The notes under the pieces were generated by a model. It was not told the DNA's origin. It worked only from the letters and a program-made list of their open reading frames with translations, and made no database searches. The position numbers were made by a program, and so were the translations under genes. Shown here in pieces: positions 34,495 to 62,260 of a DNA stretch of 64,000 nucleotides. Source of the stretch: Phoronis australis (taxonomy: Eukaryota; Animalia; Phoronida); assembly GCA_002633005.1 (NCBI GenBank), contig NMRA01000568.1, positions 162,759 to 226,758 on the forward strand, in the 5' to 3' direction. Position 1 is the stretch's first letter; every line of letters starts with the position of its first letter.

Positions 34495-34549
34495 AAGTCG
34501 TTTGCACTACTTGCACTATTCGGCGTCTTGTCTGCCGCGGTGTGCTCAG
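34492..34549 (+). CDS. Exon 1: signal peptide MKSFALLALFGVLSAAVCS
   Basis: Met-Lys, hydrophobic core, small residues at the cleavage region; phase-1 donor CAG|GTAATA at 34550, in frame with the next exon. Not in the ORF track. Confidence 0.85.
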
Positions 34550-35334
34550 GTAATACCTGTGGAATAGAGTAACTTACATGTAGTGTTCAGACAGAATGTC
34601 TTTTGTTATTCAGTTTTGGAGTGCCTATCGAAATCGGTTCCGTTATGAGTGCCATTTCCTTGAATTGACATATGTTTGGGACCAAAAAAACACAATTGCT
34701 TCTGGTCTGTGTTTCTTAGACCAATGTACATTTGTATGTGTGAGTGTACGAAAGAGGTGAAGTGGTGTGCGAAGTTTTTCACAGCTTCAGCGGTGCACTC
34801 GACTGTACTCCTGTCGACAAGGTCGGAGAGCACTTGGCTGTAATGTCTAGTTCTTAGTAATGCCTCAACCCGTGAATGTTGACACTCAACTTTGTTAAAA
34901 ACAACCTTTTTTGAAAAGTGAGGTGCATTTTTCGAAATCAATTGTAAATCGACCAGGTCCAACAGTTCGACTTCCCTTTATTAACCTCCAGGTAAAGCTA
35001 CATCCGGGTATGATTTTTACCATAGGTTATCTTCTTTAGTGGAAACAACATTGACGCGTTACTAAATAAAGGTCTGGCTTCATAAAATAGTGAACAAAAT
35101 AATTCTATTATTAAATACCGTTTTGTCTTAATGTAACTAATGAGTAAATTTGGAAGATGATGCGTTCTTAATACATATCAGATATTTACGAATAAACACC
35201 ATTGATGAGTCAAGTTTATACTTTTGCTCATATTGACGTATTATAATTTTGTTGTAATGCTCAAAGGAATCTATGTGCAGCAATGCGCTACCGGAATATT
35301 ACTGCAAGCTTATCGCCTGTGAGTGCTATTTCAG

Positions 35335-35604
35335 TGGCATCGGCTGTCGTCAAGTGGAAAATGGCGTTGCAAGAGATCCACAGCGAAGAAGACTTGGAAG
35401 GCATCGAGGACTTTTTGAAGTGCGCAGCTAAATGCCTGGGTGAGACCGCTATGGCCATATTTAAAGACTGCAACTTCAATATGACATGCTGGAAGAAAGC
35501 AATCATGGGCCGAGCTGGCGGTCAGGCTTTCATCTGCGCAGTCAAGTGCTTCGACTTGAGGACACGAGATGCCGCACTTGTCCTTCTCGACCACAAACCT
35601 GCCG
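35335..35604 (+). CDS. Exon 2: acidic pro-region plus six-Cys module 1
   Basis: Acceptor TATTTCAG, donor CCG|GTAAGA, phase 1-1, 270 nt. EEDLEGIEDFLKCAAKCLGETAMAIFKDCNFNMTCWKKAIMGRAGGQAFICAVKCF. Confidence 0.88.
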
Positions 35605-36023
35605 GTAAGAATAAAAACTTCACGTACCGTTTTTATGCATTTTTGTTTTCAAAAAGTTAGAACTCGGACTGAGTTTCAGCAGTCGAAAGCCATAACTATA
35701 ATCATGTGCTTGCGTTTTTTGCCGGTGCAACCCAATGTCGCTCTACGGTGGCAGCCATTTTGTTGGTGCACCGTCAGAAATTCAAAACGGAACTAAAAAA
35801 GCATGCATTCATTTGTGTCTATTATAAAAAATCGACACCATGTTGTAAAGCAATCACCGGAAACAAAATCTGGATAAATTGGTGTGCCGATCAAAATTCG
35901 CTTTTTCAAGTTTGTAACCAAACTAACGAGGTTCTTTGGTTATTACCCTGTATTGCGGCAGTGTGTTACTACTCTGACTAATAGTATGTCACTGACATTT
36001 TGTGGCGGGAAATATCATTTCAG

Positions 36024-36182
36024 CCCACTGCCTGATTACGACGGAAAACCCCCCTAATTTAAAGGATATTATTGGCGAGAAAAATGATTTTCTGCGAATT
36101 CGCCCCTCCAGATTAGTACCGTAAAACCATGTGGTCGCTGTCAAATGCTTTGCAGTCAGAGCTAAATCTCAGTCAATGGTTG
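36024..36182 (+). pseudogene. Relic module exon with internal deletion and stop
   Basis: Acceptor CATTTCAG, donor G|GTAAAG, 159 nt, phase 1-1. Reads ..GEKNDFLR..*NHVVAVKCFAVR, matching both ends (DFL, AVKCF) of module 1; TAA at 36122. Confidence 0.5.
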
Positions 36183-38659
36183 GTAAAGTAATTTAAGTCT
36201 ATTTAACTGGGCCCTGGATTCAGCGAAGGTCTGACACAACGGCGATTATTGGGGATTTGTAATGAAATAACAAATACACAACGAAGTTTATTGTTTTATA
36301 ACTCTGGTCAAAGCTATCAGCGTAAAAACGTCTATCTCATTAAACAGTAATCAATAAAACGCGTTTTCGGCCGTAATAACGACAATATGTCTTTGAGATC
36401 TGCTGGTGCTCACGTTGGTTACAGTTGCAGCGCCCTCGTGTGACGAGGTTCTGACCCAGGGTGTGGAAACGTAAAAACTCTTGCCAAGCACAAAAATTCC
36501 TACCGCAGTACTTTAACCCTAGTTGCTCTCAGTCTCATATTTACTACTGACAGATGTAGTACAAGAGAGCGAGAACACATTACATGTGCGTAGTTGTGGT
36601 GAAACTGACTGAGTGTGATAATTTTGTCCATGGTAAGATTTTTCCGGTGTGTGGTAAGGGAGCACTCTCGTGCTAACAGCTGATTTCCAAAGTATGGCTC
36701 TGTACTTGCCGTACATTGTAACTAAACAGGGTTACTTTTTCCTTTCAGTCTAAAATAGTAATAATATTAATGTTTCTTTTTGCAACGGGCGTGACACTTC
36801 GGTAAAATCATTAGAAACGCGTTATACAGCAAAAGCATTTTCAGTACAAATATTCTTTCACAACCAGTTTCGTTGCACTCCCTACACATACACGACAGGT
36901 AAGTCACTGAAAAGACCATAGTTGGTGTTTCATTTTCATGTATTTGCCACGAACGCACCTGTCCACTGATTCATCTTAACTACATGTAAACTTATTATCA
37001 ATTTCGCCCAGGATTTGTAATAGAAGCAAAAAGAAATCTCAACGATGTTTCGCACTAGCAACCTCCGCATTTTATCACGAGATCGGTATTCACCAAGACT
37101 CCGTTTTGTTTGTTTCGTGGTAGACAAACAAGGTATCACACGCATGCGCACGCGAGCACGCGTACACTGGGTGTAATAAGAGCCCACCTGATGAAATTTA
37201 ATGTAGTCGTTATTAAAAAAAACAATACTTAAATAAATCGGGGTATTTAGAATTTTTCCTTGTTGGTCACTTCTAAACTTGTCTGACATTATTTTTACAT
37301 GTATGCAAATTTTCAAGGCTAATTATTTTGGTTCACTCATTTAGCGTTAAACACAAGAGAGCAAAGGAGGCGAGAAACGGCGGGGAAAGTCTTCGAGGGT
37401 TTCATAGATCCTTGCTGTTCCTCAGTCGATCGTGCTTTGATGGGAATGCGTACATTCATTTGTTTGACCGTTTGCTCATGTTTTTATAGAGTAACTCAAT
37501 TCCAAGGGGACAGCGTGCTCAGTCAATAAAATTATACAATTACAAGAAGTTTATTCGAGTCAATGAAACGATGTTAACAATGAAAATATAATATAGAAAA
37601 ATAAGATACCCACAAGAATTTACTAGTGATGTAGTTTGCTAGATCACTGCCACTTTCAAACGTTGGTCAGAACCTCATGGATATATGGTATAGTCGCTTC
37701 GGAAACAAGGGCGATGATATCAACATCTGTTTTGACGTCTGGACCGATTGTTGCGAATCGTTGATCAATGTAAAATTCAGCAGTGGTCGCTAGAGTGAGC
37801 CTTGGTCGAGAGTTATTCTATGAGAAAACCGAAAGGTTTAAGAGGTTTTTGATAAAAATCCATGCAAGTAAGTCCCTTCTATCCGGTTACCGTTGANNNN
37901 NNNNNNNNNNNNNNNNNNNNNNNNNNNNNNNNNNNNNNNNNNNNNNNNNNNNNNNNNNNNNNNNNNNNNNNNNNNNNNNNNNNNNNNNNNNNNNNNNNNN
38001 NNNNNNNNNNNNNNNNNNNNNNNNNNNNNNNNNNNNNNNNNNNNNNNNNNNNNNNNNNNNNNNNNNNNNNNNNNNNNNNNNNNNNNNNNNNNNNNNNNNN
38101 NNNNNNNNNNNNNNNNNNNNNNNNNNNNNNNNNNNNNNNNNNNNNNNNNNNNNNNNNNNNNNNNNNNNNNNNNNNNNNNNNNNNNNNNNNNNNNNNNNNN
38201 NNNNNNNNNNNNNNNNNNNNNNNNNNNNNNNNNNNNNNNNNNNNNNNNNNNNNNNNNNNNNNNNNNNNNNNNNNNNNNNNNNNNNNNNNNNNNNNNNNNN
38301 NNNNNNNNNNNNNNNNNNNNNNNNNNNNNNNNNNNNNNNNNNNNNNNNNNNNNNNNNNNNNNNNNNNNNNNNNNNNNNNNNNNNNNNNNNNNNNNNNNNN
38401 NNNNNNNNNNNNNNNNNNNNNNNNNNNNNNNNNNNNNNNNNNNNNNNNNNNNNNNNNNNNNNNNNNNNNNNNNNNNNNNNNNNNNNNNNNNNNNNNNNNN
38501 NNNNNNNNNNNNNNNNNNNNNNNNNNNNNNNNNNNNNNNNNNNNNNNNNNNNNNNNNNNNNNNNNNNNNNNNNNNNNNNNNNNNNNNNNNNNNNNNNNNN
38601 NNNNNNNNNNNNNNNNNNNNNNNNNNNNNNNNNGCAAATGCTTCCAACCCGACAAAATG

Positions 38660-38698
38660 TTGGGCCCCCCCCCTTGTGATATCCTAGATCCGCCACTG
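38660..38698 (+). repeat. 3' end of a CAGTGGCGGAT-family element next to a gap
   Basis: CCCCCCCTTGTGATATCCTAGATCCGCCACTG. Confidence 0.6.
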
Positions 38699-39487
38699 AC
38701 TATGCCGCCACTTTTTTAAGCTAGTGGTTCACCTTCTCAAAGGCGATATTTTGCTGTTGCTTTGGCAAGATCTTTCAACCTGCCGGCAAATAAATGTGTG
38801 TTTTTATTTCCTTCCACCACAAGGTCTTTAAGAAATTGTCATTCGTAGCCAAGGTGGTAGACTGCACCCGCCAGCATATGAAACTGGTTTTTCTCCTTTT
38901 GTGTGAACCAGGGCAATTACTGCATTAGCGATGTATCCAATGCCAAAATAAACCAATGAAACTATCGTGGACTAAAACTGGTGTTTTTTCTATCAAATTG
39001 GCCTCCGAAATTGAATTCTCCATGAAAAAAATTTGTCATTGTCGTTCGTTACAGGGGAAAGACGATAAATATTAGCCAAATACGATGTCATTGATGTTCT
39101 TACCAAGGGAAGTGTGTTGACTGTAATGTCGGATACACAATTGGTTTATGAGCGTCAACAGAAGATCGCAAGAACGCTTTAACGATAAAAACTTGTTACC
39201 TGATCCTGGAAACTCCTTTCGTGTGGAGTTGAAACTGTACACTCTACAGTTTTGACTATACCATAAAACTACTCGTGTTAAAAACCCATGGAAAGCAGAT
39301 AGGGACACATCTATAAAGTCGACCTGGCGCATTAATTTGATAGAGTTTCATTCACACAATCCGAGAAGAAGGCGTTAAGTGAACGGTTTTCCTCTGTTTG
39401 ACAAATACCATGCAAACTCATGAAATATGATGTCGCTTTCGTAAACTGCAACGATGATACATTTCTCGCATGTGCATTCGACATAAA

Positions 39488-39592
39488 TTGTAACAATTTC
39501 GTAAAATGTAACAACTTGATGCGTTTTAGGAGAAGCCTAGCAACGTAAAATATAACAATGGCACAATTGTTACATTTTACGAAATTGTTACA
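39488..39592. repeat. Short inverted-repeat element
   Basis: TGTAACAATTTCGTAAAATGTAACAA mirrored by TTGTTACATTTTACGAAATTGTTACA. Confidence 0.75.
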
Positions 39593-39851
39593 TTTTACGG
39601 CGTATACTGTAATTGATGGCTTCCTTTCATTACTTGATTGCTCAATGTCGGATCCTTCACGAGATACACATTTAAAATATAAAAATACGACTGTAGTCAA
39701 CACTTAAAGAGAAATTTAGAAACGTGTAAATGTGCGTTTGGTTCGTCTTAACATCAAATTCTGCCTCTGTCTTCGTTCGCCACACGCTTTACTAATTCCA
39801 TCCAATGTAGAATGGGAATCTTTCTAGTGTTAACCAGTGCACGTTTTGCAG

Positions 39852-40067
39852 GCTATCGAACCACCTGCTACGAAAAGGGGAATGAATACAAACTAGTTAC
39901 CGGCACGGGCTGCGAGAATTTTACCCAAAGGAACGTGTTTAACAACGTGTTCGGTTTGCTCCAATGTCCTAAAGGGCTTCAGTTTAACGTGAGACCATGT
40001 GTGTGCGATTACCCGTACCGAACCAGGTGCGCCCTGCAGATAGACAATCAAGAAAATCTTCCAGCTT
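39852..40067 (+). CDS. Candidate exon: chitin-binding type 2 (CBM14/peritrophin-A)-like domain
   Basis: Acceptor TTTTGCAG (phase 1). CYEKG..GCENFTQ..CPKGLQFNVRPCVCDYPYRTRC fits CPxGLxFN..CDY/W. Probable phase-1 donor T|GTATGC at 40068 (216 nt). The expected third Cys is absent. Confidence 0.7.
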
Positions 40068-40749
40068 GTATGCGAATCTTGCTTGTTTTAGCGTCAGCGT
40101 TGTTTCAATTCGAAAGAATTTTAGGTGATCATTGAACCTTCCTTGTTATACAATAGGTCCATTCTGCATTACATATGTGCTTCAAGCCGAGTCTCATTTT
40201 GCACTGATGCGCATGCTCGAATTTGTGCAAAATTTGCCGTCTGGCAGAAAACACTCGATGCACGTGCAGGTAACCGGTTATTTTGTCTGGCAACACTCAT
40301 TTTGCATAGATCGAATTACAGGCGATTTGTGAGCCAATAAATCTGTTACGTAACTGTTGTACAAAAACCAAGTATATTTGAATGAAATGTAATTCAAGGT
40401 TTATGTTGAAGTTTCCACTCTTCTCAAGCTTTGTAGTCAACCGCGTAGACAAGAACATTTGCTTGAGTTTTAATTTTCAATCTCATCTTTTTATTGCATC
40501 TGTGTTTCTATTTTGCTTATTTTTGCTTTGCTGAACACGTTTACAACATAGCAAGTTCTGTGCTGCTATTGCAGCAAACTCATTTCATTGAGGTAGGCAT
40601 GCTAAAGATGTTCAAAAGAATTATTGACCGAAACGTCGTGGCAATGTTTATGAGCAAGACTTGGACTTAGATAAACACAAAGATTTTAGAAGTGGTATAT
40701 ATGCTTTGAAAATTCCCATGATAACGGGAGGTTTAATGGATTGTCTTAG

Positions 40750-40950
40750 CTATTGTTTTTGTTGTTGTTTTTGTAATAGTAGTAGTAATAGCACTAATAA
40801 TGGGAATAACAGTAATAGTTGCTGCTGTTCTTGTTTTTGGTGTTGTTTTTGTAATAGTAGTAGTAGTAATAGCACTAATAATGGGAATAATAGTAATAGT
40901 TGCTGCTGTTCTTGTTTTTGGTGTTGGTTTTGGTGTTGTCATTTTTGTTG
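40750..40950. repeat. Low-complexity TGT/TAG/TAA tract with an ~80-bp tandem duplication
   Basis: TGTAATAGTAGTAGTAATAGCACTAATAATGGGAATAA..TGCTGCTGTTCTTGTTTTTGG occurs twice. Confidence 0.85.
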
Positions 40951-40998
40951 TTGATATCGCTATTGAACCCTAGATAAATGTACGCTTGCGTCGAATAG

Positions 40999-41229
40999 GT
41001 CTTGTGGCCGGAACAAACACAGAAGTCGAACTGCCCGACTTCCTGAAGTGTCTGGCTAAATGCCTTGGGAAGTCGTTGGCTGAAATCGAACAGTGGTTCA
41101 ATGAGTGTGGGAACAACAAAAAATGTTGGGCGAAAAAAGTTGGCTTTACGGGACTAAAGTGCGTTGGCAGTTGCATCATGTTTGATGATGAAACCAGTGA
41201 CGCCACATCCTTCAATGCAATCAAGTTAG
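40999..41229 (+). CDS. Six-Cys module 2 exon
   Basis: TAG acceptor, G|GTAAGT donor, 231 nt, phase 1-1. DFLKCLAKCLGKSLAEIEQWFNECGNNKKCWAKKVGFTGLKCVGSCI. Confidence 0.88.
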
Positions 41230-41728
41230 GTAAGTCATTGAATCAGATATTCAATACCGTAAATGAAATTCGACGGGCTATGTCATATCTGGGCTTAATT
41301 GCTTCTCTCCACGTCACGATAATGCCACCAAAATTAATTTATCTTAACAGATTGTCGAAAGACCGAGCCCAGTTTACAGGAAGTTGTGTGTGGCATGCAC
41401 TCTTTCCACACTGCACGTTTCAAAACCCGATACATGGATATCTAGAGTTATCATTCTTGAGTTAATTCCCTTTTTGAGTATACCTTTTACATGTATAACT
41501 CCTGTCGTATTGGACTGTCTAATCGCTTTGAGCTATCAATCACGCGTTCCTATGCTTCCTTTTCTTACAATTAGAAAATAATACTTACATTATTACAGTT
41601 GCAATCGGTATTTTGAAAATGTTATTGTTGTTGTTGATGATGTTATAGGTTGATATTGTTGTGGTTGTCATTTTTGTTGTTGTTGTCGCTAACTCAACCC
41701 TGGATAAATATGCACTTCCGTCGGTTAG

Positions 41729-41962
41729 GGGGTGTGGCCGGTAAAAACACAGAAGTTGATATGCCAGACTTCGTGAAGTGCCTGGCTAAATGCCTTGGGA
41801 AGTCGTTGGCTGAAATCGAACAGTGGTTCAATGAGTGTGGGAACAACAAAAAATGTTGGGCGAAAAAAGTTGGCTTTAAGGGACTAAAGTGCGTTGGCAG
41901 TTGCATCACGTTTGATGATGAAACCAGTGACGTCACATCCGTTGAGCACGAGATCAGATCAG
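41729..41962 (+). CDS. Six-Cys module 3 exon
   Basis: 234 nt, phase 1-1; core nearly identical to module 2; weaker donor GTCCGT. Confidence 0.78.
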
Positions 41963-42691
41963 GTCCGTCATTAAAAAGATATACAGGTTGTCTAATTCTC
42001 GATATCAGTGCAAATTAAGAGCTAACTATTCTTGTCAGCTGTTCTTAGGTAAAACGCAATAAAGGTAACATCCCTGCAAATTAAACGAATATAAACCTTG
42101 CCTCCGTGCAAGAAAGGAACTTTATTTAAACCACTTTTCTCGTCTGTCCATGTACATGTATGTCGGTATGGCAGCCATTGAGAGAAAATTGTCAAGAAGA
42201 GTGTTGCACGCACCGCTACGGTACGTATAATTTTACGCGGACTCGTAATCAACATCCACAGTCTCTGTTTATTTTTTAGAAATGAAAAAACTCGAGTACA
42301 AATTCTACCGACGTTAAACACGAGGGATGTAATTCGACAGAAATGGGGGGGCAGTCCTTTGATCTTGTGAACATTTTTTATTTATCAATGCTAAACACCT
42401 GAAGATGTCCAAAGAAATAATTGACTGTAGCGTCGTGGCAATGTAAAAAGGCTACACCATAGTGTAGATAAACCAATAGATTTTAGAATGGATATAAATG
42501 TTTGGAATTCCTTCATGATAACGGGAGTTTTAATTTAATGTCTTTGCTATTGTTTTTATTTTTGTAGGCGTAGTAGTAGTCGTAGCAGCAGCAACAGCAA
42601 AAGCAACAGCAGTAGTTCTTGTTATTGTAGTTATTTTTTGTCAGATGTTGTCGTTAAGTGGATCCAATGTTCGCTTTAATTCGTCCAATAG

Positions 42692-42925
42692 GTATTGTGG
42701 CCGCAACAAACGCAGAAGTCGAACGCCCCTACTTGCTGAAGTGTCTGGCTAAATGCCTTGACATGTCGTTGGATGAAATCGAAGAGTTGTTTGCAAAGTG
42801 CGGAAGAAGAAGGCAATGCTGGTGGAATAAAGTTGGTGTGGAGGCAGTAAAGTGCCTCCGCAGTTGCATCAAGTTGGATGATGAAAGCAGTGACGTCACA
42901 TCCGTTGAGCATGAGATCAAACCAG
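42692..42925 (+). CDS. Six-Cys module 4 exon
   Basis: AATAG acceptor, CAG|GTCAGT donor, 234 nt. YLLKCLAKCLDMSLDEIEELFAKCGRRRQCWWNKVGVEAVKCLRSCI. Confidence 0.85.
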
Positions 42926-43679: not shown

Positions 43680-43913
43680 GTATTGTGGCCGCAACAAACG
43701 CAGAAGTCGAACGCCCCTACTTGCTGAAGTGTCTGGCTAAATGCCTTGACATGTCTTTGGATGAAATCGAAGAGTTGTTTGCAAAGTGCGGAAGAAGAAG
43801 GCAATGCTGGTGGAATAAAGTTGGTGTGGAGGCAGTAAAGTGCCTCCGCAGTTGCATCAAGTTGGATGATGAAAGCAGTGACGTCACATCCGTTGAGCAT
43901 GAGATCAAACCAG
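43680..43913 (+). CDS. Six-Cys module 5 exon (protein identical to module 4)
   Basis: Same splice sites as module 4; one synonymous TCG/TCT difference seen. Confidence 0.82.
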
Positions 43914-44661: not shown

Positions 44662-44895
44662 GTCTTGTGGCCGCAACAAACGCAGAAGTCGAACTCCCCT
44701 ACTTCCTAAAGTGTCTGGCTAAATGCCTCGATATGCCGTTGGATAAAATCGAACAGTTGTTTAAAAAGTGCGGGAGAAGACGGCAATGCTGGTTTAATAA
44801 ACTTGGTGTGGAGAAAGGAAAGTGCCTCCGCAGTTGCATCAAGTTGGATGATGAAAGCAGTGACGTCACATCCGTTGAGCATGAGATCAAACCAG
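44662..44895 (+). CDS. Six-Cys module 6 exon
   Basis: Tandem acceptor CAGTAG (could start at 44659), donor GTCAGT. YFLKCLAKCLDMPLDKIEQLFKKCGRRRQCWFNKLGVEKGKCLRSCI. Confidence 0.85.
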
Positions 44896-45751: not shown

Positions 45752-45985
45752 GTCTTGTGGCCGCAACAAACGCAGAAGTCGAACTCCCCTACTTCCTAAA
45801 GTGTCTGGCTAAATGCCTCGATATGCCGTTGGATAAAATCGAACAGTTGTTTAAAAAGTGCGGGAGAAGACGGCAATGCTGGTTTAATAAACTTGGTGTG
45901 GAGAAAGGAAAGTGCCTCCGCAGTTGCATCAAGTTGGATGATGAAAGCAGTGACGTCACATCCGTTGAGCATGAGATCAAACCAG
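45752..45985 (+). CDS. Six-Cys module 7 exon (protein identical to module 6)
   Basis: Same sites as module 6; the unit follows a single-N join at 45177, so it may be an allelic assembly copy. Confidence 0.72.
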
Positions 45986-48215
45986 GTCAGTCATTAGGCA
46001 AGAATATGTGAAATTTGAGCTAAATCTTGTCAGCAATTCTCAGGTAAAGCGCAATAACCTACTTCCGTGCAAAATGCGTTTTCTCCTGCACAAACATGTA
46101 TTCGAAATACAAACAGCTGCTCAGAAGAGTAGTAGGATGAAACGTAAAGCGCTTATTGCTACCCGTCAGTATGGAGTACAAGATTCCGGTTTGGCGTTGA
46201 TTAATTTATCAAAAATTAACTTTTTGTTAAAGAAAATTGCCAGGAAGTGTCGAAAGCGCTGCAACGGTATGGTGAATGCCAAATCCTCGGAATCTAACGT
46301 AGCAGGCCAACGTTTATGTCATTGAGTTGGTACAACGTATTATTTTACGCCGACTGGTAATCAACATTATCTTTTTCTGTTGTTTTTTCTGTTTTGAAAC
46401 AATAGAGTACTAAACAACGATAATCCTTTATGCGTAGGGTCAAAATTCCAATTTATCGACGTCAGTATTTGTGTTGCCGGTCTTTTTACCTCAACAAAAC
46501 GGAAGAAGCCGAGCTTCCCGTGCTTATCAGGGGCCAGCCAAATGCCTCGTACAAAAACAATATTTTTACATGTTTTGTGTGAAATAAGTTGAGAATTCCG
46601 GTAAGCTTCGTAACTTGCTGGGCAGACCACTTCACGGAATACTTGCGAAATAGTCAATTGTCCTAATAGAGCCATGCTGTACGTCTTGGCGTTCAAGACA
46701 GATGAGTGGTCGCCAGGTTTGGCTGAAACAAGCTAGAAACGAACCAGTAAGGGGAAATAATAACAGTTGTTACGTAGCAAAAAGCGAGCACAGCTGCTTT
46801 TTTGTGATACTTAACATTGAAGTTATTGACTTACTCAGTGGCTGACCCAGGATCATGGGCAAATGCACTTTGGCATCGGATCGACTTGCATAATAGGCAC
46901 GTCCTATTCCTACAGTACAGCAATGCAAAGTAACTGAGCGTGGCGTCTGGACCACATGGTCCTTTTTTTAAACTGGGTCAGATACACTACACTTCTAGTT
47001 TAACTGACTGGACATCAAACAGTTTTTCAATGTCTGTCTATAACCATGCTTGTTCAATAAAGTAAACAAAGTTCCCTTCGTGATAATAGATTTGCCACCA
47101 TCCTGTACAGTACACTTAACGGCATAGTGTATACTGTGGTTCCGGGCTCGGACTGCAGGGAATTTACTCAGAGAACCGTAAAGATTAACGAATCAGACGT
47201 ACACCCAACACTGCCCGACAGGTCTGCAGTTTAACGTCGACGTTTCTGTATGTGATAAATAGAAGCAGGACAAAATGCACGGCCACGTGACCTATTCGTC
47301 ACCAAACCACGTCATTTCAAATTGCCAATCGTTGAACTTCATTTTAACATACAATTATTTCACAACAGGAAAGATAAAAGTAACGTACAGCTGTACATGT
47401 TTTAAGTTTTTAAGCAGATCTTCCTTTATACATGTACATGCTGTGTTGAAAGTCATGCTTTGTAAGTCTTCTTTGACGTTTTCTCATTCACGCAACACGG
47501 CGGACATATGGAGAAACCCCACGTTGGCAAATGTTTACCAAAGAAAGTGCCGTTTCCAGCAAAACAGGGTAAAAATTTAATAACTCCAAAGGGTCTACTC
47601 TCTGCACTCGAAACTGGACTCGAAAATTGACCAGTTGCATGACAAGCTTACTGAAACTAACACATTTGTTAATGCACTAAAGTGACTGGTTAAGTTTTGA
47701 TTCCTAGTTGAGTCTAAGAATATACTTTGGGCTCTGGTTAATGTATGAATTTAAACAAAACTCCATTTTGGTTTGAGCAGTACTAGTGTGCAGCAAACAA
47801 AATTTGACCTGCATTGTACATTGTAGTTGTGTGACGAGTGGCAGAAGAATGGAGGTCTTAGTTTCACGAACTGTTTGTATGCTCAAAAATGCGCTGTCCT
47901 TTTAAATGATAAATCAAACACTACTAGTACATTATAAAAAATGACAACAAATAATAGTTTAGTCGTAAGGTATCATTATAAGCAAACGTATTAAATAAAT
48001 TCGGACAAATCTGTTTAAGAGATAGCGCTCTCTGTGCCTATATGTATATTCACAGCCGGGTGCTCCATTGAAACCATTTTCCGAACATCATGTGCAAGGA
48101 AAAGTCCTGCACGCTCGTTTAAAAGTTTGAGATGAGATCTGTGGTGTCTCGATATCAAAAAATACACCTGCTCGTCCCTTACTATACTATTGTACAATTT
48201 TCACTTATTTTACAG

Positions 48216-48442
48216 GCGACGCAAATGTTTCTGAAGAGTGTTTAGCCAAATGCCTGGGAGGATCTCAGCCAGATGTCGCCCAGTTGAGCAGAAAATGTTA
48301 CAGCGTCATCAAGTGCTGGATGAGAGAAGTTGGTGTCAAGGGATTCCTTTGCGCCGCCTCTTGTTTGAGCGCCAAAGAGAAGACTCCTGCGGAGAGTTAT
48401 TCGTTTTCCGCGACGTTGACTGCAAGCGCAAACAAGTCATAA
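48216..48442 (+). CDS. Six-Cys module 8 exon, ending in a stop
   Basis: Strong acceptor TTATTTTACAG, phase 1. DANVSEECLAKCLGGSQPDVAQLSRKCYSVIKCWMREVGVKGFLCAASCLSAKEKTPA...NKS*. The ORF track shows only another frame. Confidence 0.85.
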
Positions 48443-49543
48443 AAGATCGCTTCTAAAGATGTAGGCCTAGTACTGAAGATTTCCTGTAAATCGTCTTCTT
48501 GGTTCTTGATTTTTAACGTTTTAAGTGATTATAAAACAGCGTTCCACCCTAAAATGAACAATTGATTTAAACCACTGATGTCGACTTGTTCCTTGTTAAC
48601 ATGATAGTGATTTCGAGGCTGGCAAAGAATCGACTATTCGCTGTTCTTCGTAGCATGTTCCCGCCTACAGGCCAACCTATAGTGCCTGGGGATCCTTTCC
48701 ACTAAAAACCAATTCTCGGATGGTCTAGAATTTTCCACGAAAATCAAGCAAAGGCGTAGGAAAATCTGTCCGAGACTCTAAGTCAACGGACAGAAATTTA
48801 AACTGTGCTCGAACAGACAGAAGACAAAACGCTTCGAGAAACGCAAAAGACAAAAGTAATCATTTTTGGCTCTTTTTGGTCAGATTGCAAACCTATGGCT
48901 AAAAAAAGACCACAGTTGATAGATTATTCAACTGGCCCACGCTCTTAAGCAATAACGAACGGTCGGTTCTCCTGAAGTCCAGAAATTATCCCTCTGATTA
49001 AAGAACAATTTGAGATCAAAATCATGCGGTAAGTAGTCTAAACGAGAGTTGGTTGTTACGATGGAAGGCCGGTCTACAGCTGCTGCAAGCCAACAAAGTT
49101 AGTGCAGACATTAATAAGTGCTTTATAACATGTGCAGAATAATCCCAAGACGAGAGCAATGAACCAAGTTTAGGCATGCAGTGCAGCGACGCCTGTGAAC
49201 CTAGTCTTTGAAACCGGAGTAACGAGAGCTGGTCTTTCGTCTAAACGTGAACAGAATCTTTTCGGTGATCTGGAGTGAGGTTAATGGACACGATGTGAAG
49301 TGTTGATGGATGTGATGTGAGTTTAATCCTGACTGATTCATGAACTTGTGTTTTTTGTTTTAATAGCGGTATTAGAAAAATCTTTAAATCCCGTAGTTTC
49401 GATAAACAAAGCCTGCAGTACGACCTGAGCGACAATTTGTGTTCTTTACTTTATACAGTACGTGCATGTATGCCTGTTCAATATTTATACATTCATTTGA
49501 ATTAGACACTGGTTTTCGTCTTTATTGCCTATTCATTCTTCAG

Positions 49544-49740
49544 GATAATCCAGCTAACATACACATGTATACATGTCATGCTGAAGAATTCAGATCGTAC
49601 AAATCATCACCGACCACCGTCTATTTCACCCTATAATTCATACTATAGGCCACGAATAAATTCACTGCCAATATGCATTCGTTTTAATTCTTTGTGTTTA
49701 GTAATGCGATGTTTTGACCTGAAAATAAACATTTTTTGAT
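49544..49740 (+). other. Candidate terminal exon A: phase-1 acceptor, immediate stop, 3' UTR and polyA signals
   Basis: TTCATTCTTCAG|GA TAA; AATAAA at 49655 and 49724; the same arrangement is kept in the paralog at 61929. Confidence 0.6.
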
Positions 49741-53530: not shown

Positions 53531-55030
53531 AATAGCGGAGTTGCAACGCCGCCATATTGGAAATGGGTCAGAATGTTGCATTGTGGTTAAGCCGGTAAAC
53601 AAGTACGTCGGCAAGCGTGGGGGCGAACCGGCCACAGGGAGGTTATACGTGTTGTGTGCCTGGCATGCTATAATACCAGTTAGCGAAATAAAAAATTTAG
53701 TTACTACCTGTTTCCCAAGGATCAAGAACTGCGTTAAACATGGGTCAGAGACATCGGTAGAGCTGGTAGCAAAGGCCGACTTCGTGAATTCTTTCCGACT
53801 TCGTAGCATAAAGTGTGCAGCGCTCATTTTGAGGGCGGCAAGAAAACGTATCTTAGAAACTGCCCAACAATATCTCCCTTCAAAGAAACAGTAACAAATA
53901 CTCCANNNNNNNNNNNNNNNNNNNNNNNNNNNNNNNNNNNNNNNNNNNNNNNNNNNNNNNNNNNNNNNNNNNNNNNNNNNNNNNNNNNNNNNNNNNNNNN
54001 NNNNNNNNNNNNNNNNNNNNNNNNNNNNNNNNNNNNNNNNNNNNNNNNNNNNNNNNNNNNNNNNNNNNNNNNNNNNNNNNNNNNNNNNNNNNNNNNNNNN
54101 NNNNNNNNNNNNNNNNNNNNNNNNNNNNNNNNNNNNNNNNNNNNNNNNNNNNNNNNNNNNNNNNNNNNNNNNNNNNNNNNNNNNNNNNNNNNNNNNNNNN
54201 NNNNNNNNNNNNNNNNNNNNNNNNNNNNNNNNNNNNNNNNNNNNNNNNNNNNNNNNNNNNNNNNNNNNNNNNNNNNNNNNNNNNNNNNNNNNNNNNNNNN
54301 NNNNNNNNNNNNNNNNNNNNNNNNNNNNNNNNNNNNNNNNNNNNNNNNNNNNNNNNNNNNNNNNNNNNNNNNNNNNNNNNNNNNNNNNNNNNNNNNNNNN
54401 NNNNNNNNNNNNNNNNNNNNNNNNNNNNNNNNNNNNNNNNNNNNNNNNNNNNNNNNNNNNNNNNNNNNNNNNNNNNNNNNNNNNNNNNNNNNNNNNNNNN
54501 NNNNNNNNNNNNNNNNNNNNNNNNNNNNNNNNNNNNNNNNNNNNNNNNNNNNNNNNNNNNNNNNNNNNNNNNNNNNNNNNNNNNNNNNNNNNNNNNNNNN
54601 NNNNNNNNNNNNNNNNNNNNNNNNNNNNNNNNNNNNNNNNNNNNNNNNNNNNNNNNNNNNNNNNNNNNNNNNNNNNNNNNNNNNNNNNNNNNNNNNNNNN
54701 NNNNNNNNNNNNNNNNNNNNNNNNNNNNNNNNNNNNNNNNNNNNNNNNNNNNNNNNNNNNNNNNNNNNNNNNNNNNNNNNNNNNNNNNNNNNNNNNNNNN
54801 NNNNNNNNNNNNNNNNNNNNNNNNNNNNNNNNNNNNNNNNNNNNNNNNNNNNNNNNNNNNNNNNNNNNNNTCGGCTGAAGGGTCGGCTGTGGGGTCGCCT
54901 TATGAGTCGGCACTGCGGGCGGCTGCCGGTCGGCTAATTTTTAGCCGACCGGTCGGCTAATTTGCCGACCGGTCGACGGCCGGTCGTCGACCAATTTCCG
55001 ACCGGTCGGCCAAAAATTCGTGATGTGTGC
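53531..55030 (+). mobile_element. THAP-bearing DNA transposon remnant spanning a gap, with a GTCGG/CCGAC palindromic tract
   Basis: Starts AATAG where homology to the 62225-62430 paralog stops; contains a THAP relic; 54871-55015 is nested CCGACCGGTCGG repeats. Continuity across the gap is unproven. Confidence 0.5.
53641..53880 (+). pseudogene. THAP domain pseudogene
   Basis: GYTCCVPG/CYNTS*RNKKFSYYLFPKDQELR*TWVRDIGR..HKVCSAHFEGGKK..PTI: full C2CH pattern with one frameshift and three stops. Confidence 0.88.
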
Positions 55031-56551
55031 TGTATTTCGAAAAATCATGAAAATTCGCAAAGCGAAGCTTTTGCGGAGTATATCAATTCACTGGATTTTT
55101 TAAGTTCAATTAGACAATTTTACAAACATAAAACTGTAATTTCCAGAGGACCTTCTCAAGCAACGGACAATGTCGCACTATTTTTCGTTTTTTTACTCTC
55201 TAAATTGTATATAACTAGAAAAAAATTGATGACCTGACAGATGACATCAATTGCTGCACGTTTCCTGATTTTTAAAAAATAGATCTTTGGAGCCCAGCCC
55301 TTGAAGGCTTCCTTGATGACATTCACGTGGCTACCTTTTTCCTGTTTTTATCAACAATTTTTTTTAAGGTAGCTCACAAAGAGAGGGCCAATGTTGGAAT
55401 CGATTACCTCTATTTCCCTGTTTTTTTTCTGAAATCGTACAACCGGCTTTCATGTTCAGTAAAGTCACTTCTTGCGGTGGAATGAACCGTCACTTATTTT
55501 AAGCTTAATGATGTTTACCCTTTCATCTTAGGTGTCCCATTTCAGAAAGGACACTCTCTCGGGGCGGTTCGGGTGAATTGTTTATTTCTTCATACACTGC
55601 CAAGTATTCACGAGGGGAACTTGAGATTCCAAATTCATCAAAAAAGACAAAACATCCGAGCACAGAACAGCAATGTCAAGTCATTTTTCACAAACAACCA
55701 ATAAATGTGAACAATACAATAGGATATACCGCCATTGAACAGGTGGAATTTGAAGAAGGTGAAGACCACTATTTGTACATTACACAGAATGATTACTACC
55801 GATGGTTAGTTATAATATAATGTTACTTTTTCCCGTATTATCACAAGAATATTATTTCTTTTGAAAATCGTTACTATGGGTTGTTTGTAAGGAATTCGCA
55901 ATTATCGAAAAGACTGGGGGCTAGGATTTGTGATGGACCTGTACATGACGAACTGGGGTCCTTACAATACTCGCGATAATAAACAAATATCAAATATTCA
56001 GCATGTTTTTGAGCTCAAGTTTAATTCGTGAACCGTTATAGGAACCTCTGAAATGATCAAAAATACACCTTAATCAGAATGCCCCATCTCCCATGTTCTC
56101 CCGTTTGCCTGTCAGAAATTTGTAAGCATGCTTATAACATTTTTGCTTAACTAAAATAACTGTCAAAGACATTCATTGATGAAATTCGGACAGTACATGT
56201 ACCTAAATATACCCAAAATTCAAATGACAATAAATGCATTAGTTTTTTACTTGGGCAAAAGATCTGTTGTTTAAACTCATTAACAGGGGATCAAAAAGGA
56301 AATAAGTCATAAAATCAAGGTAAAGACATTGCTCATCAATTCGATTGTTGGTTTCTGATTGATGATTTTTTGGCAATTAGAAGCTAATCTAGTAAGAAAT
56401 GACAATGCTTCAATGAACTTAGTTGCAAGCTGACATTGGGAAAATTCGATCTACATTGTATGATCAAGACCCCAATTAGAAAAGTACACTAAACAATTTT
56501 TGTATATCTGAAATAAATCTCAAAGATATTGATGAATGCTGGACAGCTCTA

Positions 56552-56931
56552 CAAGGTGTCCCAAAATGTTCTCACACTTCAAATGATTGTTTCTTGACTT
56601 AGGAAATAGATAAGTGGGTTTAAAATCACAAACAGTGAATTGAAAAACAAGTTTAAGTACTTAAATAAATAAAATTAAACTCATTGCTGATCAGCTTGGA
56701 AAGGCTGTATTTGCACTTCCTTGATGTTTTTAATTTCCAGTAGTATTGCGCAATTAACTTTTTTCTTCAAAACTGAATCGTTTGCTTGCCAGTTGCGTGC
56801 ATATTACAGACGGAACACGTCATAACTGACTGGTCTAAACATGCAGTAGGCTCGTGCAGAATCTCAGAGATCTACGGGAACTGAAATTGAAGTCGAGACG
56901 ATGAACTGCCTACGTTTTGGGACACACTCTG
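56552..56931. mobile_element. Tc1/mariner-type MITE
   Basis: TA|CAAGGTGTCCCAAAA ... TTTTGGGACACACTCTG|CA; imperfect TIRs with TA on the left. Confidence 0.65.
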
Positions 56932-58142
56932 CATCATTTTTCCCAGGCACCAGAAGCTGGACTATCGGCAGTGTTTCAACAAGGGATTCTCAAACGGCCC
57001 TAAAGGCATCATACCAGGGAAATTCGGGAACTCACCATTCCAATATTTAAATTTACACCTGGGATACGCAAGCACCACTTTACTGTAGGACTCATTTACG
57101 TACTGTATTATCCTGTTCCCAAGATACACGACACAGAGATATACATGTAAGGCGGAAATGCTTCACTTTTTGTTCAATTGTGACTGAAGTTCGAGGCGCA
57201 CCTTTATTTTCTATCATGATGTGGACCTCAGTGCCTAATATATATTAATTGTATGGTTGGTAACCTGCTTGATAATTTGCCATAGGTACATGTACAGTAG
57301 TGTTGAAGGGAGTGTTCTTGTAAAAGCATACTCCGAGCCTTACATCGGTGGATACTTCGTTAGCATGTGTGTTACCGTGGAAACCCCGTTACACTCAGTG
57401 GTGATGTCGTTTGTTTATATTTTTTGTTTTGACACGGGTCTTGAAACATCAAGTGTTTTTACTTTGAAGTTAGCCATTTTACCCGCTGATGTAGGCTGAC
57501 AATGCCTTGAATTAACTGCTGATAGTTGATTAAATAAAATGTGGATGGTTTACGAGATCTGGGAAGCACCAGAAGAAACTACCCTAAATGGACTCTGTAT
57601 TCAATAGTCTTCTTGACACAGACCAGAGCTAATGATTTTTTGGCCTTACACAGCCAATTCAGTATTGCAAAAAGTTCATATTGAAATTTAAGCTCAATGT
57701 CTTACTTAAAGTATGCATTGATTTAAAAAGGCTTCTATTTTTTATTTCTTGTATATAAAATATAGAAAAAGATTCCCCAATAGCGGCTAAAGTTATATAA
57801 TCGCACCTCAGTACATGTATTTCTTGTTTATTTGTTTAACTGCCTGTATAGATTCTGATATGTTGAAAATTTCAGGTTCACCATTTTTTGATGACAAAGC
57901 AAAAGATGACATCGTATCGTAGTGGAGAGTTTTCAAGGAAATTGTGAGATTGATATGTAATCATAAAATCTCTATAGACGTTGTGCTAGTCATGTTACTC
58001 AAAGAGCACATACATTGTAAGTTGAGTTGAAACAGAAATCGTTTAAGCAGTTCGTACACGAAATTTGATTGTTAGAGAATATGTGGTTTGGCTTCATGTA
58101 GTTCTAATATTGTGCTTTTTGTACATTACTCTGATTTGAAAG

Positions 58143-58330
58143 TCAGAAATGGTTTCCTGAACTGCATGGCCAAATGTTTGGATAAATCGCTGGCTGACAT
58201 TGAACAAAGGTACAACGAGTGTGGCGCTGATGTAAAGTGTTGGGCGAGAAAGGTTGGCTTTGAGGGATACACATGCGCCGCGAAATGTATTCCGGTTACC
58301 TATCCTGTGGAATTGCCAGCTGAAGTTTAA
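58143..58330 (+). CDS. Six-Cys module 9 exon (stop just before the relic donor)
   Basis: AAG acceptor (phase 1) after a CTAAT branch-like site. GFLNCMAKCLDKSLADIEQRYNECGADVKCWARKVGFEGYTCAAKCI..PAEV*; donor GTACGT at 58353. Confidence 0.75.
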
Positions 58331-59627
58331 GTTGAAAAAAAGTCTGTGACAAGTACGTTGTTTATTGTACAATGTTGAAATTTACCAATGTGCCATACTA
58401 GGAAGACATGCAATAGCAAAATACTGTAGTACAAATGCTGTGACATTTTCTGCAATTTGAGTGGACGAAGTTAATTTTTTAGTCATTGGTCTATCAAAAG
58501 TTGAATTAATCTGAGCGATTCCGGATGTCCTGTAATCATCACTGAATCAAACACCAGTGTTCAGCCACAGCAAAGGCAAAGCACTCCAAATTTCGGAAAT
58601 CACAGAGAGATTATTCCTTTAGACATGGCGTATCGCTTCAATTAGTACATTTTGTTTATGTTCATTTTTAGTTCTTTAATCAAACACGTTAGTGAGTTTT
58701 TTGTTGAAACTGGATGTTTACCGATAATAACAGAACAGGATAATCAACATTATTTTCCCTTCCAGACACCTGCTGGTCACACCTCGAGACCTGTATTTAT
58801 TCTAAGTCTGATGATTCAGTTCGAACGCTATCTCGAACCCAGCATTTCCTGCTTTCCGCAAGACAAACAATGGATACTTTAATTTCATCCATAGAAACGT
58901 GCACCAACATTCTCAAAAATCCATTTGCTTGTTAAAGTATTCTCAGTGGTGAAATTACATTACACAACAATTATAGTGTAGACGTACATTCTACCATAAC
59001 TGTTTTTAAAAACAGAAGCTGTGATGCCTTATTTCTATTTGTACAAAACAGGTTGCAAAATGCATTGGGCACAGACCAGAGCTAATTATTTTATTTTTAG
59101 CCTTACACAGCGAATTCGGCATTGCAAAAAATCATCTTTAAATTTAAGCTCAATGTCTTATTTTAAGTATGCATTGATTTAAAATAGCTTCGATTTTTTA
59201 TTTCTTATATATAAAAATTTCGAGAAAGGTCGTCCAGCAGTGGCTAAAAAGATACAAATGTATAGTATCACATCAGTATTTTTGTTTGTTTGTGTACATG
59301 TATATGTCTGTATATTTTGCCAACACCTAGGATTCAGAGATGTTAACATTATCGTATTCATCAATAACTGACGGAAGAGAAAAAGATTACAGAGTATCAT
59401 GGAGTAGGCATTTCTGTGAACATTTGAGCTTGATACATGTATTTAGTGATAAAATCTCTATAGCCGTTGTGTTTATCATGTCACGCAAACAGCACACGAA
59501 TTGTGTTGCAGTAGAAAGTTTTTCAATACATGTAGTTTGTAGATGAAATTTGATTGACAGATAATAAGTGATTTGTGCGTTTGTAGTCCTAATATTGTGC
59601 TTTTTATACATTACTCTGATTTGAAAG

Positions 59628-59833
59628 GTGGCAACAATTTCCTGAAGTGCATGGCCTCATGCCTGGACAAAACGATGGCAGACATTGAACAATGGTACAA
59701 CGAGTGTGGTACTGATGGAAACTGTTGGTTGAGAAAGGTCGGCTTCATGGGCCTCACATGTGCCGGACGTTGTACGCTTAACACGGGATCTCTGGAATTG
59801 TCCGCTGTAGTTAAAGTTGAAAAAAGTCTGTGA
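59628..59833 (+). CDS. Six-Cys module 10 exon (stop just before the relic donor)
   Basis: NFLKCMASCLDKTMADIEQWYNECGTDGNCWLRKVGFMGLTCAGRCT..KSL*; donor GTACGT at 59837. Confidence 0.75.
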
Positions 59834-61242
59834 CAAGTACGTTGTTTTCTAGATAATGTTAAAATTTACCGGTTTGTCATACTTAGAAGACTTGCAATAG
59901 CAAAAGAGTGTAGTATAAAGTTGTGAAGTTTTCTGGGATTTGCACGGAGAAAGTTAATTTTTGTTAGACATTGCACTGTCAAAGTTGAATTAATCTAAGT
60001 TATTCCGGATGACCTGTATCACTGAATCAATCACCAGTGTTCAGCCAAAGCAAAGACAAAGCACCCGAGAGTTCGGCAATTACAGAGATATTATAACTTA
60101 AAACATTGCGTTTCGTTTCAATTAGTTCTTTGTGCATTTGGTAATGTTTAATTGTTTAGTCAAAAATGTTTGTGAGTTTTTTTGAAGCTGGAGGTTTACC
60201 GATAATAACAGAACATAGTATGCAACATTATTTTTCTTTCTCGACACCTGCTGGTCACCACGCAACTGGCCCTTATTCCAAATCTGAAGATTGAGTCCGA
60301 ACTGTTCCTCAAAGCCCGCGCTTCCTGCTTTCCGCAGGACAAACAATGGAAACTCTTCATCCATACAAATGAGCACAAGCATTCTCAAAAATCCATTTGT
60401 CTGTTATTCCTTTCTCAGTGGTGAAATCACATTACACATCAATTATAGTCTATACTACGGAGATTTTGTTGGGCAGATCACTTCACGGAATATCATCAAA
60501 AATCAATCGTCCTAATAGGTATATGCAGTCCGTCTAGGCGTGCGAGTCAGTTGAGAGGTCGCCAGGTTTGAAAGCAACAAGCTAGGAACCAGTAAGAGGA
60601 GAGGATAATAGCTGTTACCTAGCAACAAGCGAACACAGCTGCGTTTTTGTGTTAGTTAACATTGAAGTTATTGACTTACTCAGTGGCTGACCCAGGATCA
60701 TGGGCAAATGCACTTTGACATTAGACATACATACTTAGGCGCATCATATTCATAAAGTACAGCAATGCATGGGTTCTGGACCACATGGTCCATCTCTGAA
60801 TCCGGGTCGGATACTAGTTTACAGGACAGAACGTAAAGCAATGTTTCAATTTATGTTCTTTGAAAAATGTCTGTCAATAGCAATCTTGCTCAATAAATTA
60901 AAGAAAGCCCCGTTTGTGATTCTAGAGTGGACACCATCGTGTAGAAGTAACGGCGTGGTGTTTACTGTGGTTCTGGGCTCGTTCTGCACGAAATATACTC
61001 AAAGAACCGAAAAAAACAATCAGTTGTACACCCAACGCTGCCCGACAGATATGATATTTGACGTCCACGCTTGTGCGTGTGACTATAACTTGAGGGCAAA
61101 ATGCACTTCCATCCTACCTACTGGTCACCATGTGCCGTCATGAAAATTTTCAAATTGCCAATCGTTCAAATACATTCAAGGACAACATTTTGAAATTGCC
61201 TATTGTATGGCAACAATTCAGTTTAACATTTTTTTTTTCACA

Positions 61243-61656
61243 ACAGGAACGAATAAAGTAACGTACATGCAAAGTTTTTAAGCAGATCTCCCTTTATACA
61301 TGCCGTGTTGAAAGTCTACGGCCGTCTACAATTGCTTTAAGTCAACATAGTGCAGATCATAATAAGTGCTTTAAACTGCGTGCAGAATTATTCCAATACG
61401 AGAGTCTTTGAAACAGGAGTAACAAGAGCTGGTATTTTGACTAAACGCGATCAGATTTTCAAAACAGGAACGAATAAAGTAACGTACACGCAAAGTTTTT
61501 AAGCAGATCTCCCTTTATACATGCCGGTCTACAACTGCTTTAAGTCAACACAGTGCAGATCATAAGTGCTTTAAACTGTGTGCAGAATTATTCCAATACG
61601 AGAGTCTTTGAAACAGGAGTAACAAGAGCTGGTATTTTGACTAAACGCGATCAGAT
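61243..61656. repeat. ~200-220-bp tandem duplication
   Basis: ACAGGAACGAATAAAGTAACGTACA...GACTAAACGCGATCAGATT occurs twice. Confidence 0.9.
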
Positions 61657-61928
61657 TCTTTTCGGTGACCTCGAGAAAGGTTTAATGACACGATGTAAAG
61701 AGTTGGTAGGTCTGACGTAAGTTGAATTGTAATTGTTTTGTGAAATAGCGTTGCCGTTGTATTGATAGGTGCGTTAGAAAGTCTTTAAATCCCGCTGTTT
61801 GGATCAAAAATGAATGCAGTACGACCTAAGTGACAAATTCGTGTTCTATTTTATACCAAAATGCTTGTTAAATACATTCATTTAAATTACATAGTGGTTT
61901 TCGTCTTTATTGCCAATTAATTCTTCAG

Positions 61929-62195
61929 AATAACGTCGGACCGAACGTACATGCATGAACGTAAATACACGGAAGCATCAGCTGGCTTAAAAGCTGATAT
62001 GCCATGCTGAAAAATCCAGATCATACATATCACCACTGATCACCGTCAATTTCACACACCCTATAGATCATACTATAGGCTACGACACTACAAATTTCCA
62101 TTCGATTTAAATCTTTTCTCGTGGTAATTTACTTGTTTCCAGTATGTTAATTTTATTACTATGATTTGACCTGAGAATAAACAGTTTCTGAGGTT
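61929..62195 (+). other. Candidate terminal exon B
   Basis: TTAATTCTTCAG|AA TAA (phase 1, then stop); AATAAA at 62176. Confidence 0.6.
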
Positions 62196-62260
62196 ATTTC
62201 TTTCGAATTTTGATTTTGCATGATCTTTGAATCCCTGTTCTGATGCCCATTTAGCACTCC

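Follow-up and report, generated by a model that had tools for sequence, protein, structure and literature searches.

A tandem array of phase 1-1 exons in Phoronis australis likely encodes a secreted polyprotein of six-cysteine modules

We describe a predicted gene in a 64,000-nucleotide stretch of the Phoronis australis genome (contig NMRA01000568.1, positions 162,759 to 226,758; hereafter the window), whose exons repeat a six-cysteine module. It is probably one gene on the plus strand, in which a signal exon is spliced to a first module (M1) and phase 1-1 module exons follow in series to a last coding exon, M8. The product would likely be a secreted polyprotein in which at least about eight six-cysteine modules, each predicted to fold as three helices, are combined with one or two putative chitin-binding domains. 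Tandem exon duplication likely built the gene, and differences in module copy number, more than splicing choice, are likely its main source of variation. The splice junctions, the strand, the last exon, and the untranslated region (UTR) are observed in RNA forms of the gene. An earlier, sequence-only reading had proposed that the common exon phase permits combinatorial splicing of a diversified peptide repertoire from a single signal exon. Most of what that proposal describes follows in the ordinary way from exon duplication, and the data contradict its strong form; the module family is what is worth keeping.

Gene layout and exon phases

Ten copies of the six-cysteine motif lie between 35421 and 59773, all on the plus strand, and a six-frame scan found none elsewhere in the window. 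The cysteines are spaced C-x3-C-x14-C-x5-C-x11-C-x3-C, with a deviating pattern (3, 11, 5, 15, 3) in M1. Exon 1 holds 19 mostly hydrophobic codons, judged a signal peptide from their hydrophobicity only, and ends at a phase-1 donor. The features of the gene are as follows.

34441..34446, plus strand: TATA-like box by sequence pattern, about 50 nucleotides (nt) 5' of the ATG; putative function
34492..34549, plus strand: coding part of exon 1, predicted signal peptide; ATG at 34492, 58 coding nt (19 codons plus 1 nt), phase-1 donor at 34550
35335..35604, plus strand: M1, six-cysteine module exon; 270 nt, phase 1-1, stranded RNA cover
37897..38633, no strand: assembly gap of 737 N between M1 and the first CBM14-like exon
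39852..40067, plus strand: CBM14-like exon a; 216 nt, phase 1-1; Pfam CBM_14 expectation value (E) 0.003-0.004, 17.6-18.1 bits, cut-off 22.1
40999..41229, plus strand: M2, module exon; 231 nt, phase 1-1
41729..41962, plus strand: M3, module exon; 234 nt, donor GTCCGT; candidate skipped or haplotype-specific exon
42692..42925, plus strand: M4, module exon; 234 nt
43680..43913, plus strand: M5, module exon; 234 nt, 99.6% identical to M4; outside the RNA-mapped stretches
44662..44895, plus strand: M6, module exon; 234 nt; outside the RNA-mapped stretches
45752..45985, plus strand: M7, module exon; 234 nt, identical to M6; likely assembly duplicate
47090..47306, plus strand: CBM14-like exon b; has a frameshift and no GT donor in the window, internal exon in RNA forms; candidate cassette exon
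48216..48442, plus strand: M8, last coding exon; stop at 48440-48442
48443..49740, plus strand: 3' UTR continuous with M8; AATAAA at 49655 and 49724; 3' limit approximate

The sequence-only reading had every module exon entered in phase 1 and every internal exon a multiple of 3. The rule is borne out by M1 to M7, which are all phase 1-1 and measure 270, 231, and then five times 234 nt. It breaks down at M8 and at two further copies downstream, M9 and M10: all three contain in-frame stops, and M10 measured to its conserved donor is 209 nt long, not a multiple of 3. Splice donors do vary in the array as had been claimed (GTAAGA, GTAAGT, GTCCGT, and GTCAGT).

Ten independent exons would agree in phase with a chance of about 2e-5. 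The modules are paralogous copies of one exon, however, so a shared phase is expected and does not amount to ten independent events. M2 to M7 are 75-100% identical to one another in DNA and are arranged as tandem units of about 1 kb. The common phase thus likely reflects ordinary exon duplication, in which the phase was fixed once and then copied, and not a mix-and-match splicing system. Excerpts of the literature describe an excess of phase-1 introns at the ends of signal peptides and extracellular modules that are mostly class 1-1 (PMC1626468, PMC8001218).

Triplet-like repeats of GTT, GTA, and GCA stand just 5' of M2 and of M4 to M7 (40741-40960, 42538-42640, 43526-43620, 44509-44610, and 45599-45700). 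They are absent from mature RNA in the RNA-mapped stretches, and by their position they could drive unequal crossing-over and copy-number change. An Rfam search of 33000-64000 gave 0 matches.

RNA forms of the 5' half

The RNA data bear the same species label but do not come from the assembled individual; they consist of one contig set and three runs of raw reads. The runs may represent one animal or pooled animals, and contig depth is a rough measure. Reads were mapped on 34300-42960 at 90% identity, and on 45180-62250 at 85% with three of the four data sets. We considered the 13 listed joints of the 5' stretch and the best 15 of 24 of the 3' stretch, together with 24 of 217 and 18 of 388 loose ends. 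The reads are stranded as expected for plus-strand messenger RNA (mRNA). In the 5' stretch they are mostly 90-95% alike to the window, and from this identity they derive from other haplotypes or a close paralog. The RNA forms that carry the junctions are 91-93% identical to the window, and a minor form in run X3 is closer to it.

Exon 1 is joined to M1 (at 35335) in 11+15+45 = 71 reads from three runs, with GT..AG borders, and this is the sole exon-1 joint among the 13 listed. The order M1, 410 unplaced letters, CBM14-like exon a, M2 is held in one contig, and the joint from CBM14-like exon a to M2 recurs in 40, 37, and 126 reads. Three further kinds of joint go back, from the end of an M2- or M3-type exon to the start of another (62/52/128, 46/51/151, and 17/30/47 reads). 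Circular RNA and trans-splicing were considered for these and rejected, extra tandem copies in the RNA forms being simpler.

Depth points the same way. In the contig set, entries into M2-type exons (1093+2140+2890, summed as 6122) compare with a module core depth of 6170, which is 5.6 times the depth of single-copy contig sequence. The sum and the core depth agree with about six M2-type copies included in series. A mutually exclusive array is contradicted because it predicts a depth ratio near one and no module-to-module joints.

The minor, window-like form in X3 joins M2 to M4 in 10 reads and one M4-type exon to another in 35 reads; over the data sets, the latter joint is seen in 1+1+35 reads. 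Neither an M2-M3 nor an M3-M4 joint is among the 13 listed, and none of these supports the 5' end of M3. A hydrophobic ATG frame at 40070-40125 was examined as a second signal exon and rejected: there are no reads over 40080-40368, and the background rate of such frames is similar.

Assembly gaps and the M6/M7 duplicate

Over 1092 base pairs (bp), the units of M6 and M7, which flank a single N at 45177, show 98.8% identity, and the two exons are 100% identical. Near-identical units that meet at a single N are what two overlapping contigs leave when they are not merged; M6 and M7 are therefore likely one exon assembled twice, and M7 is unlikely to be a separate exon.

The assembly probably also lacks some exon sequence. 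The unplaced letters of the contig fall between 35608 and 39852 and, after adjustment of the cuts, make 414 nt, a multiple of 3. They start like another module, in that a loose end reads as a module start, and they have no match in the window (best 14/20). This missing exon sequence of about 414 nt likely sits in the gap at 37897-38633. Beside the gap, at 38634-38699, a short high-copy element draws hundreds of reads from both strands, and its flanks in these reads are diverse; GC-rich motifs of a similar kind are found again near 23900, 25180, 26150, and 32580.

RNA forms of the 3' half and the gene end

M8 is entered by three routes. An M7-type exon is spliced to it in 40+2 reads with GT..AG borders; CBM14-like exon b is joined to it (47306 to 48216) in 111+42 reads and one contig; and M10-type exons lead to it directly in 47 and 14 reads and in 260 loose-end reads of X3. 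The X3 entries (111+40+260 loose) come to about 411 against an M8 depth of 431, which leaves little room for a joint from exon 1 to M8. No joint from exon 1 to M8, M9, or M10 is found among the loose ends listed (24 of 217; 18 of 388), and exon 1 and these exons never fall in one mapped stretch.

M8 merges into continuous stranded cover to about 49740 (depth 60-74 in X3 and 10-20 in X1 to 49739, none beyond). M8 is the last coding exon because it runs on into this UTR cover. The end point given in the sequence-only reading, 61933, which we take to mean a short terminal exon at 61929, is not upheld: this position and its paralog at 49544 both lie under continuous plus-strand UTR-like cover, and no joint enters either among the best 15 of 24. 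The candidate mini-exon at 49544 is thus part of the UTR.

In the dominant RNA form, M9- and M10-type exons are internal: they are entered from M3-type exons, joined together, and lead to M8. The supporting joints are M3/M7-type to M9/10-type (39+44 and 16+24 reads) and M10-type to M9/10-type (47 and 17 reads; 2424 in the contig set). M9- and M10-type exons end alike (18/20 at both), so the upstream exon of the M10-type joints cannot be pinned. The acceptors proposed at 58143 and 59628 remain plausible for the window copies, each being the first AG after the pyrimidine tract. For the RNA forms they do not apply, since M9/M10-type reads carry 9 bases upstream and use an earlier acceptor, at which position the window has no AG. 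Joints at 45865-58234, 58267-45909, and 49296-61718 were rejected as splices: they are non GT-AG, with reads split between paralogs.

Domains in the CBM14-like exons

CBM_14 (PF01607) is the sole Pfam family matched by the CBM14-like exons. The matches cover the full profile at 17.6-18.3 bits against a gathering score of 22.1. In both copies the position that we take to be the usual third CBM14 cysteine holds Arg. In the window, exon b can be read only by combining three frames.

The downstream cluster

Downstream of M8 lie further copies of the same elements.

53906..54870, no strand: assembly gap of 965 N; may conceal a promoter and a signal exon belonging to the downstream cluster
58143..58352, plus strand: M9, internal-type module exon; in-frame stop at 58328-58330 before a conserved phase-1 donor; acceptor uncertain
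59628..59836, plus strand: M10, internal-type module exon; out of frame with its conserved donor, stop at 59831-59833; acceptor uncertain
60926..61140, plus strand: CBM14-like frame, paralog of exon b; intact, phase-1 acceptor, stop at its end; Pfam CBM_14 E 0.0025, below cut-off
61141..62190, plus strand: UTR-like region, paralog of the M8 3' UTR (68-77%); AATAAA at 62176; contains 61929-61933

The segment 46615-49769 is paralogous to 60466-62223 at 68-77% identity, and the M8 segment is absent from the second copy. This identity is too divergent for alleles, so the cluster is probably an old duplicate of the 3' part of the gene. The frame at 60926-61140 is likely the last coding exon of this copy, judging by its sequence. 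The stop in M9 lies 7 codons before the conserved donor. By this account copy 1 would have lost its M9-type exons and inactivated CBM14-like exon b, and copy 2 would have lost M8. M9, M10, and the second CBM14-like copy may now be decaying, or they may belong to a separate gene with an unassembled 5' end. The downstream CBM14-like exon and UTR have plus-strand cover in X3 (depth 18-37 per bin) and hardly any in X1.

The sequence-only reading found no second signal exon before M9 and M10, and our scan of 49700-58140 agrees: it gave 1 weak candidate, with Asp/Glu and Cys, against 4 background hits in 1-34300, and the exon-1 local alignment score was 28 against a shuffle mean of 26.9. No promoter or signal exon for the cluster was found in the assembled sequence.

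Two side observations concern this region. A strong-looking acceptor at 58767, 3' of M9, has little read cover, and its paralog after M10 (about 60245) has no AG. Next to the 965-N gap, a frameshifted frame at 53630-53905 resembles a THAP zinc-finger domain, has reads on both strands, and is likely a transposon end. Two short pieces of this frame gave no Pfam hit.

Splicing choice or copy number

In the arrangement that we favor, one promoter would give a long mRNA and a likely secreted product. The window-type frame would run to about 784 codons, with M7 counted once and the missing 414 nt included; the dominant RNA form would be longer, with about six M2-type and about three M9/10-type exons by contig depth. 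Most of the diversity would arise as haplotypes or paralogs gain and lose whole exons, changes that phase symmetry would make harmless.

Skipping of CBM14-like exon b is likely the main real splice variation. The symmetry of the exons permits in-frame skips, as had been suggested, and there are two candidates: M10-type to M8 with or without exon b, and M2 to M4 past M3, the latter in one run. Both may be differences between alleles or paralogs, from which they cannot be told apart. That neither reflects regulated skipping is a serious possibility, if somewhat short of even: haplotypes plainly differ in module content, the window has no working exon b, the upstream exon of the direct joint is unpinned, and the runs may be pooled. 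The contrary evidence concerns exon b. Joints with and without it occur in both raw-read runs mapped there; X1 shows two exon-b versions (46 of 71 reads at 47265) plus the direct M10-type to M8 joint, a combination that would need skipping in one diploid animal; and in X3 the M8 reached by the two joints does not vary at the sites listed.

The downstream cluster could serve as an alternative 3' end, with some transcripts bypassing M8, splicing M6/M7 to M9, and ending at the M9 stop or beyond. The absence of a signal exon from 49700-58140 fits this, as do same-strand transcription of the cluster in X3, where the window-like form also occurs, and the M9-type exons that follow M3-type exons in RNA. 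We consider it unlikely. Joints from 45987 to 58154 and 59639 at first suggest such splices and were rejected as M7-to-M9/M10 joints here: they carry 21 intervening letters from a different paralog (13/20 match at 58133). M8 is followed by a UTR and polyA signals of its own, a promoter may be concealed in the 965-N gap, and M9 and M10 are broken.

A single signal exon serving an array of mutually exclusive or freely combined modules, with many short peptides as the outcome, is very improbable. The uniform 1-1 phase, the donors of differing strength, the two candidate skips, and the alternative splicing reported for the six-cysteine X-tox genes (d'Alencon 2013) speak for it. Yet M1 is the partner in all 71 exon-1 joints listed, joints between modules number in the hundreds and dominate, module depth matches the sum of serial entries, and the database relatives are long polyproteins.

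Several points weigh against our preferred model of a single serial gene varied by copy number. The CBM14 scores fall under the Pfam cut-off. The RNA is from another individual, and its dominant form has other module numbers and possibly represents a paralogous gene, so the isoform set of the window is inferred. Where modules are nearly identical, isoforms cannot be counted from short reads, and skipping among such modules is possible. M5 and M6 (42961-45179) lie between the two mapped stretches, and the joints and loose ends are parts of longer lists (15/24; 24/217 and 18/388). Finally, X3 contains transcripts of the downstream cluster, and a simple dead duplicate would not call for any.

The module family and its possible function

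A profile built from the ten window modules was searched against protein databases. It matched 3 of 244 candidates of similar length, 1 of 7996 longer proteins, and, at E<=0.001, 38 representatives. The closest named relatives, by sequence, are lophotrochozoans. Polyproteins of a signal plus tandem modules occur in Owenia fusiformis (CAH1800560.1, 7 modules) and Lineus longissimus (XP_064627860.1, 9 modules), and Lingula anatina has polyproteins of 9 (XP_013408573.1) and 13 modules (XP_013408580.1) with a signal-like N-terminus. Oscarella homologs hold 1-2 modules. Trefoil domains accompany the module in homologs from Ciona and Clavelina, one of which its source calls integumentary mucin A.1-like. 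Across 22 proteins scanned, four show the module fused to another domain: trefoil (tunicates, P0040 and P0043) or saposin B (unnamed metagenome proteins P0026 and P0060).

Pfam has no family for the module, in the window or in the scanned homologs. Pfam hits of the long proteins to GAD, RalF, and others were rejected as repeat artefacts, with 0 passing stretches. A sequence search of the PDB gave one hit only (E 0.25), and the ESM Atlas no usable hit. AlphaFold2, run on a 26-row alignment, predicts three helices and no strand (mean predicted local distance difference test score 78.7; predicted template modelling score 0.56). Foldseek returned 0 matches at E<=0.001, and VIA-align over 48,161 chains 0 at Z>=8; its best match was an unrelated enzyme cap (Z 5.2, root-mean-square deviation 2.4, 54 aligned). 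There are no saposin-like or RECK CC chains among the structural matches listed. Missing structural matches do not show the fold to be new. A metagenome locus scan gave 209 pattern matches, none confirmed, a literature search by accession gave 0 papers, and no title in the keyword listings concerned the module family.

The charge pattern is regular. Among the window exons, with M7 left out as identical to M6, cores are cationic in 8/9, flanks are acidic in 8/9, and dibasic sites occur in linkers of 0/9. The absence of dibasic linker sites suggests that the protein may act uncut. Cationic cores with acidic flanks are also present in the Owenia and Lineus proteins, weakly so in Lingula, and not in the protist-type proteins, whose linkers are not acidic.

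From the charge pattern, the rapid turnover, and the fusion partners, the gene may encode a precursor with a role in innate defence or mucosa, whose cationic disulfide-locked modules, acidic linkers, and chitin tether would together work like X-tox; we put this at slightly below even. Against it, cores in Lingula and protists are only weakly charged, with non-acidic protist linkers. A structural or mucus matrix component of tube, shell, cuticle, or peritrophic layer, whose modules cross-link or bind and are no defence effector, is nearly as likely, at roughly one chance in three. The CBM14-like domains, the lack of dibasic cleavage sites, and the tunicate fusions to trefoil, one of them named as a mucin, would suit such a role. 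Cationic cores, acidic spacers, and rapid copy-number turnover resemble defence precursors instead, and the protist fusions to saposin B also speak against a matrix.

A broader picture is speculative and rather unlikely as a whole: an unnamed, all-helical, three-disulfide mobile module family, ranging from a sponge and tunicates to lophotrochozoans and protists, would form X-tox-like defence polyproteins. Here it would make a chitin-tethered cationic string that varies by haplotype through exon gain and loss, with regulated skipping of one chitin-binding exon tuning the tether. If the modules are antimicrobial, they would offer a new defence peptide scaffold, and the gene, which is expressed and varies by haplotype, could be tested at once; if they are structural, they would be a matrix module of a new kind.

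Other elements in the window

The remaining features derive from mobile elements.

653-5611, minus strand: Bel/Pao-type long terminal repeat (LTR) retrotransposon frames (Peptidase_A17, integrase, DUF5641, aspartyl protease), interrupted by a gap and by a 161-bp tandem duplication at 3797-4118
12500-14600, plus strand: degenerate reverse transcriptase remnant of long interspersed nuclear element (LINE) type, RVT_1 E 2.7e-07 on 13103-13594

Comparison with known systems

Arthropod Dscam1 arrays share tandem duplicated exons of equal phase. Unlike theirs, the exons of the window gene are included together in series; module-to-module joints and the 5.6-fold depth are at odds with one exon per mRNA.

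Class 1-1 extracellular modules (Patthy; excerpts of PMC8001218) are a closer match in exon structure. The module is flanked by phase-1 introns on both sides, follows a phase-1 signal exon, is tandemly repeated, and is fused to unrelated domains; phase-1 junctions are seen in RNA for exon 1-M1, CBM14a-M2, M2-M4, M4-M4 type, and M7-M8. It differs in having no Pfam family and in being predicted as all-alpha, a class that the excerpted text counts as a negligible fraction of the frequently used class 1-1 modules.

Amphioxus VCBPs, as described in part of PMC2632668, are likewise secreted and carry a chitin-binding domain, and they show strong haplotype and copy-number variation, pseudogenes, and haplotype-specific transcripts, a precedent for chitin binding combined with variation between haplotypes. 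They contain two immunoglobulin V domains in place of cysteine-rich helical modules. Mytilus multi-MgCRP-I (in part of PMC4558851) is a lophotrochozoan secreted precursor with repeated six-cysteine modules; it has all modules on one exon, another cysteine pattern, and a dibasic cleavage site. Bivalent spider toxins, by contrast, arose within one exon, according to an excerpt of PMC13172734.

Lepidopteran X-tox proteins have a signal peptide and many six-cysteine motifs, one per exon, whose number varies between species and individuals (parts of PMC4558851 and PMC4436361); alternative splicing is also reported for them. The window gene likewise has one motif per exon behind a predicted signal peptide. 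Its RNA forms have other module numbers than the window and show candidate skips, with alleles and paralogs not separable. Their motif is the defensin cysteine-stabilized alpha-beta fold; the window module is predicted as three helices with no strand, gives no defensin hit in Pfam, has another cysteine spacing, and is accompanied by CBM14-like domains. X-tox is lepidopteran, whereas the module occurs in lophotrochozoans, tunicates, a sponge, and protists. The window gene is not an X-tox because its motif is not the defensin fold. By analogy, it would work like a class 1-1 tandem-module precursor, and its layout most resembles that of X-tox.

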